Shown one piece after another: positions 15,506 through 18,500 of a stretch of 64,000 nt of DNA. Made by a program: the position numbers and the translations under genes. Within the stretch, counting starts at the first letter, position 1. Each line of letters opens with the position of its first letter. Under the pieces are notes generated by a model. It did not search any database and was not told the DNA's origin. It saw only the letters and a program-made list of their open reading frames with translations. Origin of the DNA: Dictyostelium discoideum (lineage: Eukaryota); assembly GCA_000004695.1 (NCBI GenBank), contig CM000153.2:800001-864000 (forward strand), written 5' to 3'.

Positions 15506-18500
15506 TTAATCCTCCAAAAGTATGAATAAATTATTTATACCATTCTTTATTGAAAAGGGAGTGCCAGAAATTGAAGTTTCATTTTTAATTTCATTCAATG
15601 GTACTAAAGTACATAAGATATCAATAGTATCTGGTGGACTATTAATTACGAATGGAATTGAGAAATCTTTATTTGGAGGTAAAGGTGAAGGAGTTGAATA
15701 TTTAAATTGTTTTTCAACATTTGAGTGATTAGTATTAAAAATAAATACTGGTGATGAGTTTTTAAATTGATTATTAATTTCGATTGGAATTTTATCAAGC
15801 CTACATTTTATATTACCAGTTAATTGATTTGTAGATTGATTTAAGACCAAATCGTCAATGTAAAATAATGATGATAAACATTTCTTTATGATTGAATGTA
15901 TAATTGGATCATTTTTAGTTTTTTCAGATTGTTGTTTTAAAATATTCATTGTAATATCATCTACTGCATCTAAACCAATTGACTTTTTGGAAACTTGGAT
16001 TGTGTCTAAATGAATTTCTACCTTCTTTAATTATATCATAAATTTCATGAACTTCTCTCCTAGAATTTTCACATTCTGTTAAAAGATTAATAATCTTTTC
16101 ACCAAATCTAAATAAATTATTTAAATCTGCTTCTGGTGATGGGAAATTACCAGTACCAAGTGAAGCCAAAATATCAATATTTCTACCAGGCCACATATCT
16201 TTACACTCTTTCATTGCAACTTTACATGGATTATTATTGATTAAACCGCCATCTTGAAATTGACGATAATTAAATTCAAATTTTGAGAAAAAAGTTGGTG
16301 CAGCTGATGTTGCCTCTGCAGCGTCAATTACATTTGAATTGGTAATGAATTTCCTTTGTTCTGAACATCTTGTTGGGTTAGTCTTTTTTTGGTAATTTAA
16401 AAATAAACATTCCTCTAAATTACCAGATTCTTGAGTTACTGATGTAACTGCTACTCTAATTTTTGAGAATGAATTTTTTAATTTTTCATCAGGTGGGAAT
16501 ATAGTTTTGAAGGATTCTCTTAGTTTATCTCTACTATATTTTGGTTTTGATACTAGGTTAGCTAATAATTGGAATGGATGTTTTACAAATACACTTTTTG
16601 ATAAACTTTCCATTGCTGTACTTAATTGTGCAGGAGTCTTTTGTGTTGATGCTAATGCCAATGCAACCAATCCTCCTGCTGATGTACCAACGATTAAATC
16701 GAATAAAGAAATGATTGGAATGTCAAATAGTTGTTTTTGAATTTGTTCCAATGCATCACAATGTAAAATACCTCTTACACCACCACCATCTAATGATAAT
16801 ATTCTTACACCCATTGTTTGTATTTTATCGATTTCTTTGATCTTACAAGAAAGTTTTCCATTACATCCCCTTACTCTACAACCTTCGTCCGATGTATTTT
16901 GGGTTTGGTCAATAAATCTACCAAGTGAACAATTTAAACATAATAAATGACCACATGTATATGGTATATATGGCGAATTCAAACAACAACCAAAACAAAC
17001 ACCTTGATTTGTTGTTGAACCTTGTATATTGTATGGTAGAATTCTAGGTATACTAGTAAGACGATTACTTAAAAATACCGATAAATCAAAGTATTCTAAT
17101 GATGGCACAAATTCACCATCCCACATATACCTTACGAATGTGTCGGTTTTAAAAAATCCTAACAAACCACCATTTGATAATTTATAAGTTTCATTTGATT
17201 GATGGTTTCTATGAGTTTCTCTATAATTCGTACAAGAATGACCTTTTGCATTCTTTGAACTACATGGTACCATCTTAAATATTTCTTTTGAAACTAAATC
17301 TAAAGTCTTTTTAAAAGATGGATGCAATTTTTTTGAAAACTCTGAATTAATATTATTTGTTTCCTTAAAAATTGAATAAACGTTTGGCAACTTTATTTTC
17401 AAAATTTCTAAACTATCAGAATAACATTTTGATAATGATGATGATGGTTTATTCTCTACTAAATAATTATAATTTATTAAAAAAAATTCTAATAAATACT
17501 GTGCATATTTACAAAGATGTAAATCACTTAAATTATTATCAAGTTTTATGACAGATGTGTTTAATGGTGATGATTGTGATCTTTTTAATGGTGATTGTGA
17601 TGGAGTTGTTGATGAACTATTTGATAATTTTGATGGTTGTGGTGATGGTGGTTGTAATGGTGATGGCGATGGTGGCAATTCTAATGATTGATATGATTGT
17701 GATGGAGATGGTGATGGTGTTGATAGTGTTGATGATGATGGAGTTGTTGATGAACTATTTGGTAATGTTTTTAATTCACTAATTTGTCTTTGCTGTGATG
17801 GTGGTGGCGATTGTAATGATTGATATGATGGTGATGGTGTTAATTCAATAACTTGTCCTTTTTGTAAATTTTCATTATTATATTTATTATAATGGTCTTG
17901 TGGAACAGTATCATCAATCTCTGGACGTAAAAATGATTGAATTTGAAAAAGCTCATCTGCTATTGGTCTTTCTTCAAGTTGTGATTTATCAATGTAACTA
18001 TTATAATCTTTATCATTATTATTAATAATTTTATCATTACTATTATTAATATTACTATTAATATTATTATTATTATAATAATTATTATCATTACAATTAT
18101 TTTTATTATTAATAATATTATTATTATTATTAATAATAATATTATTATTATTATTATTTTTATTATTATTATAATTATAATTATAATTATTATTTTTATT
18201 ATTATTATTATTATAATTATTATTATTATAATTATTATTATTTAAATTATTGTCCGAATTATTTTTTGAATTTGTAAATTTATCTCTATTGATAGGAGAC
18301 AATCCGGTTTGTGGTTGTCTGTTATTTTCATTTAATGGTTTCAAATTTCCCACTGAATATGTTCTGACCCTATCTCTAACTAAATTTGATTCTAATTCAA
18401 CGGGTTTTGAAGTATGCAAAGGTGGTGGTGAATTAAAAATAGTATGAAGACTTTTAATTGATGATGACGGAATTGGTGTTGAGAGATGTGATTTATTAAC

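Follow-up and report, generated by a model that had tools for sequence, protein, structure and literature searches.

Patatin-like phospholipases are the closest described relatives of the proteins treated here. iPLA2-beta/PNPLA9 (6AUN), iPLA2-gamma/PNPLA8, the plant protein patatin-17 (1OXW) and CapV (8ZR9), a bacterial CBASS effector, share with them the motifs GGGxRG, GTSAG and DGG, and the C-terminal segment "FRxNP ... LD" of these enzymes is common to two of the three gene copies described below, A and B. Two further known systems bear on the third copy, C. One is the unprocessed pseudogene that arises by a frameshift in a tandem duplicate, and the other is the programmed +1 frameshift site of yeast Ty1, EST3 and ABP140 and of antizyme.

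In the 64,000-nucleotide stretch of Dictyostelium discoideum DNA analysed here (the window), three tandem minus-strand genes, A, B and C, code for large proteins that contain a Patatin domain (PF01734). At about 1300-1540 aa these proteins are much larger than known patatin-like phospholipases. Further differences from known patatins are a Cys-rich and P-loop NTPase-like N-terminus, long stretches of low complexity that are rich in Asn, a RING-like group of Cys residues preceding the patatin domain, and a C-terminal extension of ~110 aa that is specific to the family. In copy C, unlike in the known enzymes, the domain is cut before the last conserved helix. From its sequence and that of its relatives, copy C is probably a real, recently formed, unprocessed pseudogene.

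The patatin cluster and the inserted base

The genes and gene parts of the cluster are as follows.

15506-20235, minus strand: copy C, the frameshifted copy
19615..20235, minus strand: exon 1 of C (207 codons), with an N-terminus rich in Cys and an NTPase-like P-loop segment (GTSGSGKST ... DSEG)
19500..19614, minus strand: single intron of C (115 nt, GT...AG), at the same position as the intron in the orthologue of the relative L001
15960..19499, minus strand: exon 2 of C to the premature stop, with a low-complexity region, a Cys-rich RING-like segment and the complete Pfam Patatin domain
10010..13969, minus strand: copy B, sister of C, open to ...ILLED and in frame where C is shifted
5455..9494, minus strand: copy A, the older paralogue, with about 75% nucleotide identity to B and C
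8835-9494, 8734-8834 and 5455-8733, minus strand: exon 1, intron and exon 2 of A, which reads through to about 1312 aa
4031..4668 (about), minus strand: fragment D, a decayed B/C-type 3' end with a 2-nt deletion and an in-frame TAA

A calreticulin gene stands just upstream of C (ATG at 22240), and its spliced product is identical to DDB_G0283539/Q23858 of AX4. The window is rich in AT, its coding sequence contains Asn-rich tracts, and its introns are short and AT-rich, those at this locus measuring 101-115 nt. Three genomes, L001 (GCA_054859385.1), L002 (GCA_054859205.1) and L005 (GCA_054859355.1), were the closest relatives available for comparison. They are syntenic with the window and about 89-95% identical to it, and each has the calreticulin gene, one B/C-type gene, one A-type gene and a C2-domain gene. 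Since there is a single B/C-type gene in all three, the duplication that gave B and C took place in the lineage of the window and is recent. The dS between B and C is 0.034, against 0.13-0.25 to the three relatives. Over its whole length C is colinear with B and with the L001 gene of 1379 aa, and its GT..AG intron stands at the same place; because the intron is retained, C is not a retrocopy. Partial duplication and decay are seen repeatedly at this locus, where B is 5'-truncated and D carries a frameshift and a stop. In L001 the A-type orthologue is broken over four frames, and large stretches are deleted from within a second copy in L002 (P0002).

Three features of C mark the lesion itself.

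15983..15988, minus strand: 1-nt insertion of G (plus-strand c at 15983), most parsimoniously between CAA AAA and TCA
15957..15959, minus strand: premature TGA stop of C, after the eight aberrant codons VNWFRCSR
15506..15982, minus strand: +1-frame remnant, the last 158 codons of C, made up of SIGLDAVDDIT and the 147-aa open reading frame at 15506-15949

The extra base of C, a G on the coding strand, was found in three-way and six-way DNA alignments. It has no counterpart in A, B, fragment D or the three related genomes, and was absent from 5/5 of the other homologous copies compared. On the coding (minus) strand C reads TTTCC-AAAAAG-TCAATTGG. The same site reads AAAAT- in B, AGAAA- in A, TAAAA- in the B/C-type copy of L001 and AAAAA- in its A-type copy, and A, B, D, both of these L001 copies and the B/C-type copy of L002 are all in frame here. 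Measured against the family consensus CAA AAA TCA (Gln-Lys-Ser), C has a pure single-G insertion, although an alignment program may put the gap at any position of the A5 run beside it (15984-15988). An insertion accompanied by a substitution had been seen at this site at first because only B and C were compared. The substitution is B's own A>T (K>N), a separate event on the B branch. In a global alignment of B and C, the extra base is the sole coding indel whose length is not a multiple of three. As a direct reading of aligned sequences, the insertion calls for no estimate of chance.

The frame of C breaks after ...NPSFQK and before SIGLD, and a TGA follows eight codons on, so that the body open reading frame of C (15957-19445) ends in ...HNPSFQKVNWFRCSR and a stop. 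The product as encoded has 1387 aa and ends at this TGA. When the insertion is removed in silico, exon 1, the 115-nt intron and exon 2 give an uninterrupted product of 1537 aa. The 158-codon remnant is still open, and the C-specific changes in it number three nonsynonymous and two to three synonymous. C-specific peptides can be named on both sides of the break, ...HPFQLLANLVSK upstream of the frameshift and IPIEINNQFK downstream in the +1 frame.

The alignments bear out the original prediction that one inserted nucleotide shifts the frame of C. The strings quoted for it, ccaattgaattttgg and ccaattgactttttgg, are correct plus-strand readings of B (~10507) and C (15975-15990), and the open reading frame at 15506-15949 (MNILKQQSEK...ILLED) is indeed the conserved C-terminus in the +1 frame of C. 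The two substitutions reported nearby are real, derived in C and both nonsynonymous. The tail was rightly described as out of frame, but its given length of ~147 codons counts from the first ATG, and the tail in full (SIGLD...ILLED) has 158 codons. The statement that B is truncated at its 5' end also held, as B has neither exon 1 nor the intron, and its exon 2 is short of the first ~16 nt. Copy A reads through exon 1, its 101-nt intron and exon 2, in agreement with the view that A is the only fully intact copy. The proposed test of C transcripts for NMD is of doubtful value, because the premature stop is in the final exon, ~3.5 kb downstream of the sole intron (19500-19614). Exon-junction-dependent NMD is not expected for a stop in the last exon.

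Exact matches and close homologues were also sought in sequence collections. None of the six reconstructed products (C of 1387 aa, the 147-aa open reading frame, two 1528-aa models, B from its first Met and A of 1312 aa) had an exact match in the protein collection, and exact look-ups of the 147-aa frame and of the 1162-aa body frame in the contig index gave no match. A homologue search with residues 700-1162 of C returned best matches of 61-63% identity, from a database in which the window's own family members are absent.

The extra base in a second assembly

A second, independent chromosome-level assembly of the same species, GCA_054883475.1 (chromosome CM142510.1), covers the cluster in two parts. 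One (L006) corresponds to window positions 10836-32264 with 0 substitutions and 11 indels, every one of which falls in a long A/T run and outside the coding sequence of B and C. It contains CCAAGTTTCCAAAAAGTCAATTGG, which is the same extra G in C. The other (L003) corresponds to window positions 12-13552, with a few more low-complexity differences and one synonymous change in A, and at the B site (~10507) it is identical to the window, with AAAATT in frame. Since this assembly has the in-frame AAAATT at the B site and the extra G at the C site, the paralogues were not collapsed into each other. The two sequences differ in homopolymer lengths and in a few other places, and therefore are not copies of one file. 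Both assemblies probably represent one strain, or two that are almost identical, of a laboratory lineage, and it is thus from that lineage that the extra G is known.

The annotation of the second assembly carries the mark of the same lesion. Its model of C has 1528 aa and is reproduced only when a GT..AG stretch of 28 nt, a short way upstream of the insertion (window 16025-16052 or 15994-16021), is removed as an intron. That such a splice was needed means that the sequence of C in GCA_054883475.1 is frameshifted too. That a real intron spans the frameshift can be rejected, since the GT..AG solutions that restore the frame are all 28 nt long, much shorter than the introns of 101-115 nt at this locus. 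For the same reason the 28-nt "intron" is an annotation device and not biology.

The patatin domain and the substitutions along C

The body of C matches the Pfam Patatin model PF01734 with 111.4 bits (gathering cut-off 27.7) over model positions 1-190 of 191. The catalytic motifs are intact in C: DGGGVRG (the GGGxRG oxyanion motif), GTSAG (the GxSxG motif of the nucleophile elbow) and DGG (with the catalytic Asp). In Pfam, neither the RING-like segment nor the N-terminal part nor the last 200 aa matched any family significantly. A GBP-like GTPase domain at the N-terminus was unsupported, as only sub-threshold P-loop GTPase matches were found in Pfam.

An AlphaFold2 model was made for residues 860-1305 of B from an alignment of A, B and 35 homologues. 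It has a patatin fold, with a mean pLDDT of 79.5 and a pTM of 0.83. Its best Foldseek matches are CapV, iPLA2-beta and patatin-17, with E-values of 1e-19 to 1e-15, and profile-to-PDB comparison reached patatin-like structures with E-values of 1e-43 to 1e-23. The frameshift of C falls at residue 288/289 of this model. The part lost from C is predicted to open with two confident helices (295-323, pLDDT about 93) and to continue as a family-specific tail, rich in beta structure and modelled with less confidence. In the profile alignment, the segment "yfRlnpdl kksikLDe..." corresponds to the C-terminus of iPLA2-beta 6AUN (YFRLNPQLGSDIMLDE..., ~703-750 of 752) and to the equivalent part of CapV 8ZR9. 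According to this alignment the insertion cuts the catalytic domain between the "RxNP" element and the "LD" helix. The RxNP...LD segment is present in A and B; in C it is broken between NPSFQK and SIGLD, and the fold is incomplete. C is still a complete Pfam Patatin match because the break lies beyond the boundary of the Pfam model.

The differences between B and C were polarised with three outgroups, branch by branch. The C branch has 24 nonsynonymous and 4 synonymous changes (omega about 1.5; p = 0.64 against neutrality), and the B branch 10 and 9 (omega about 0.28; p = 0.007 against neutrality). The two branches differ, with a Fisher p of 0.02 on small counts. Polarisation with two outgroups gave 28:6 nonsynonymous to synonymous changes for C and 13:9 for B. 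The copy that looks constrained is, curiously, the 5'-truncated B. Upstream of the frameshift C has 21 nonsynonymous and 2 synonymous changes, an omega nominally above 1 whose excess over 1 is not significant (p = 0.2); downstream there is no nonsynonymous excess (3 to 2-3), on counts too small to say more. C looks unconstrained since the B/C duplication, though an omega above 1 could also mean positive selection instead of decay. The open +1 frame and the lack of a nonsynonymous excess downstream of the frameshift fit a very recent lesion.

Two groups of substitutions in C deserve to be located.

16550..16573, minus strand: substitution cluster of C, with ~10 substitutions in the patatin domain, changing HPFNFITYPLIKPKY to HPFQLLANLVSKPKY
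16032..16061, minus strand: C-derived changes near the insertion, TGG>AGG (W>R) in codon 16059-16061 and TTA>ATA (L>I) in codon 16032-16034

Six replacements of C lie in adjacent codons of the first, 24-nt cluster, which may be a single mutational event. No donor for it was found on either strand of the window at <=5 mismatches. When the cluster is collapsed, C has 19:4, and its contrast with B becomes borderline (about p = 0.05, a rough estimate), weakened and not reversed. Some replacements of C fall on residues that are invariant in all other aligned copies and relatives, such as the W of NSWREVHE, changed to R, and the K of DGGLKNNNP, changed to I.

Readings of copy C and comparison with known systems

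If copy C is the young pseudogene that the sequence comparison makes probable, its history would be as follows. An ancestral single gene next to the calreticulin gene, its product a patatin phospholipase with a P-loop NTPase-like domain and a Cys-rich segment, would have been duplicated in tandem in the D. discoideum lineage to give B and C. C would have retained the promoter side, exon 1 and the intron, and would then have gained one G between codons 1379 and 1380 (CAA AAA ^G TCA). Its translation would run through eight wrong codons to a stop, giving 1387 and not 1537 aa. The 158 residues lost would comprise the terminal conserved patatin helix and the family-specific C-terminal module. C would then have gathered substitutions as if unconstrained. 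We infer that the truncated protein would be inactive or unstable and that gene C is dispensable. Of four features by which pseudogenes are recognised, C shows three: homology with a kept structure, a disabling lesion in the genome and relaxed constraint. The fourth, the lack of a functional product, is suggested by the removal of a conserved helix.

A sequencing or assembly error, by which the extra base would not exist in the organism and C would be an intact 1537-aa gene, might be suspected, since the single base adjoins an A5/T5 run, C is otherwise open, the removal of one base gives back the full-length frame and the 158 downstream codons are without a stop. However, GCA_054883475.1, which is not the same sequence file, has the same base, and the inserted base is a G that extends no homopolymer, unlike the usual error of long reads, which is one of homopolymer length. 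The neutral-like ratio of nonsynonymous to synonymous changes in C is, moreover, independent of the indel. An error is thus very unlikely as the source of the extra G. Of the two possibilities left by the original prediction, a young pseudogene or an error, the pseudogene is favoured by the second assembly with the same base and by the relaxed constraint along C. Recoding would accept the base as real and still yield some full-length protein, by a +1 ribosomal shift or by transcriptional slippage. Like programmed +1 frameshift sites, C has an open +1 frame downstream and a re-pairable P-site codon: on CAA AAA GUC the re-pairing of Lys-tRNA from AAA to AAG would be perfect, and slippage dropping one A of the A5 run would give CAA AAG TCA (Gln-Lys-Ser), which restores exactly FQKSIG. 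In contrast to such sites, the shift in C is not conserved in paralogues or orthologues (absent from 5/5 other copies), there is no conserved recoding site, the 0-frame A site has neither a rare or otherwise slow codon nor a stop codon, the shifted arrangement is without sign of selection, and C is evolving neutrally. Known slippage tracts are far longer than A5. On these grounds recoding of C is scarcely credible.

A truncated but functional C, either an altered 1387-aa paralogue or a regulatory or decoy one, whose replacements would reflect diversifying selection in a fast-evolving family, has more in its favour and yet seems unlikely. The 1387-aa product would retain the NTPase-like and Cys-rich parts and the core of the patatin part. 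C keeps its catalytic motifs and the full Pfam Patatin match, its promoter side, its first exon and its splice sites are undamaged, its omega before the frameshift nominally exceeds 1 (21:2), and the family does evolve fast, with a between-species dN/dS of about 0.3-0.6 for the family as a whole. Against this, that omega is not significantly above 1, the replacements hit residues invariant in all other aligned copies and relatives, the lost helix is conserved from bacterial CapV to human iPLA2-beta, and the other copies at the locus are visibly decaying. A broader idea must be rated highly improbable. In it, C is not dead because its truncated product has a role, or a small fraction of full-length product restored by slippage at CAAAAAG has one, or because C, B and D serve as gene-conversion donors that would diversify the intact copy. 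The NTPase-patatin cluster of social amoebae, rapidly evolving and variable in copy number, would on this idea possibly act in defence or self-recognition.

For annotation, the frameshift of C belongs to the genome and is not to be "repaired", the model of 1528 aa for C in GCA_054883475.1 is an artefact, and the proper label for C is a pseudogene or a truncated gene. Literature searches on Dictyostelium patatin pseudogenes, on the new assemblies and on guessed gene identifiers near DDB_G0283539 found nothing relevant. The locus is a small, clean case of birth-and-death evolution in a fast-evolving D. discoideum patatin cluster, in which one copy is intact, one is truncated at its 5' end, one is frameshifted and one is reduced to a 3' fragment.

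Among known systems, C is an ordinary one, a standard unprocessed pseudogene and at most a truncated paralogue. Like other unprocessed pseudogenes formed by a frameshift in a tandem duplicate, it is a recent duplicate that has kept its intron and upstream region, it has one frame-breaking indel, a premature stop and a neutral-like ratio of nonsynonymous to synonymous changes, and the partial copies B and D stand nearby. It differs from a typical unprocessed pseudogene in having one disabling lesion so far, with its catalytic motifs intact, and in having a sister, B, that is 5'-truncated and yet looks constrained.

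5′ truncation of copy B and decay of fragment D

Homology of copy B, one of the tandem patatin-type phospholipase genes, to its sister copy C (the copy with the 1-nt insertion) and to the orthologues begins about 16 nt into exon 2 (window 13969-15140; B itself, 10010-13969), so that exon 1 with the P-loop, together with the intron, is absent from B. Despite this truncation, purifying selection is found on the B branch (10 nonsynonymous to 9 synonymous changes, omega about 0.28). That B is truncated yet constrained points either to a very recent truncation or to expression from a new start.

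A fourth, partial copy has decayed.

Window 4031-4668, minus strand: fragment D, corresponding to the last ~630 nt (3′ end) of a B/C-type gene and the flank downstream of it

Its lesions are a GAA>TAA stop and a 2-nt deletion, and at the site of C's frameshift it reads the B-like AAAATT, in frame. Fragment D is flanked by copy A, the older paralogue, on one side and by a C2-domain gene on the other.

Substitutions in copy C and codon states in related genomes

The patatin domain of C is recoded from HPFNFITYPLIKPKY to HPFQLLANLVSKPKY by a dense cluster of changes.

Window 16550-16573, minus strand: roughly 10 substitutions found only in C, packed into 24 nt of the patatin domain

A search of both strands of the window found no donor for this cluster, which may represent a complex mutation or conversion from beyond the window. 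At about 12 B/C codons, the B state matches one outgroup genome and the C state another, a pattern that could come from gene conversion, from recurrent mutation or from incomplete lineage sorting.

Copy C, window about 15748-19352: mixed-state codons 257, 322, 394, 752, 935, 1044, 1051, 1108, 1114, 1153, 1295 and 1300 (numbering based on L001, the syntenic locus of GCA_054859385.1)

The A-type orthologue in L001 (9090-9974) is broken over frames 1/2/1/3 and annotated as three separate genes, and that in L005 (GCA_054859355.1) is intact. The broken orthologue reflects either independent pseudogenization or assembly errors in GCA_054859385.1.

Gene models and run lengths in the same-species assembly

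Three gene models annotated at this locus in the independent assembly GCA_054883475.1 are forced.

L006 11996-16713 and 17078 onward; L003 10981-16385: models of C, B and A

The C model (1528 aa) uses a 28-nt intron as a bridge, the B model (1324 aa) opens with a 17-nt exon (MNVII) ahead of a 1157-nt intron, and the A model (1459 aa) is joined to fragment D. Over 21.4 kb (window 10836-32264), the sole differences from this assembly are the lengths of long A or T runs, in every case longer in the window; they are a technology signature of homopolymer calling.

Window 19549, 19596, 20401, 20431, 22329-22564, 24589, 27520, 31284 and others: run-length differences

Domain architecture of the family

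The domain layout of this family is unusual among patatin proteins: an N-terminal Cys-rich part is followed by a P-loop NTPase-like segment, long Asn-rich tracts, a RING-like Cys cluster, the patatin domain and a family-specific tail of about 110 aa.

Window 19615-20235: exon 1 of C
Window 8835-9494: exon 1 of A
Window 16850-17050: RING-like Cys cluster, CxxC...CxH...CxxC

The NTPase-like segment reads GSGKST...DSEG, with sub-threshold Pfam GTPase matches only. For the patatin part, the best fold match is the bacterial CBASS effector CapV.
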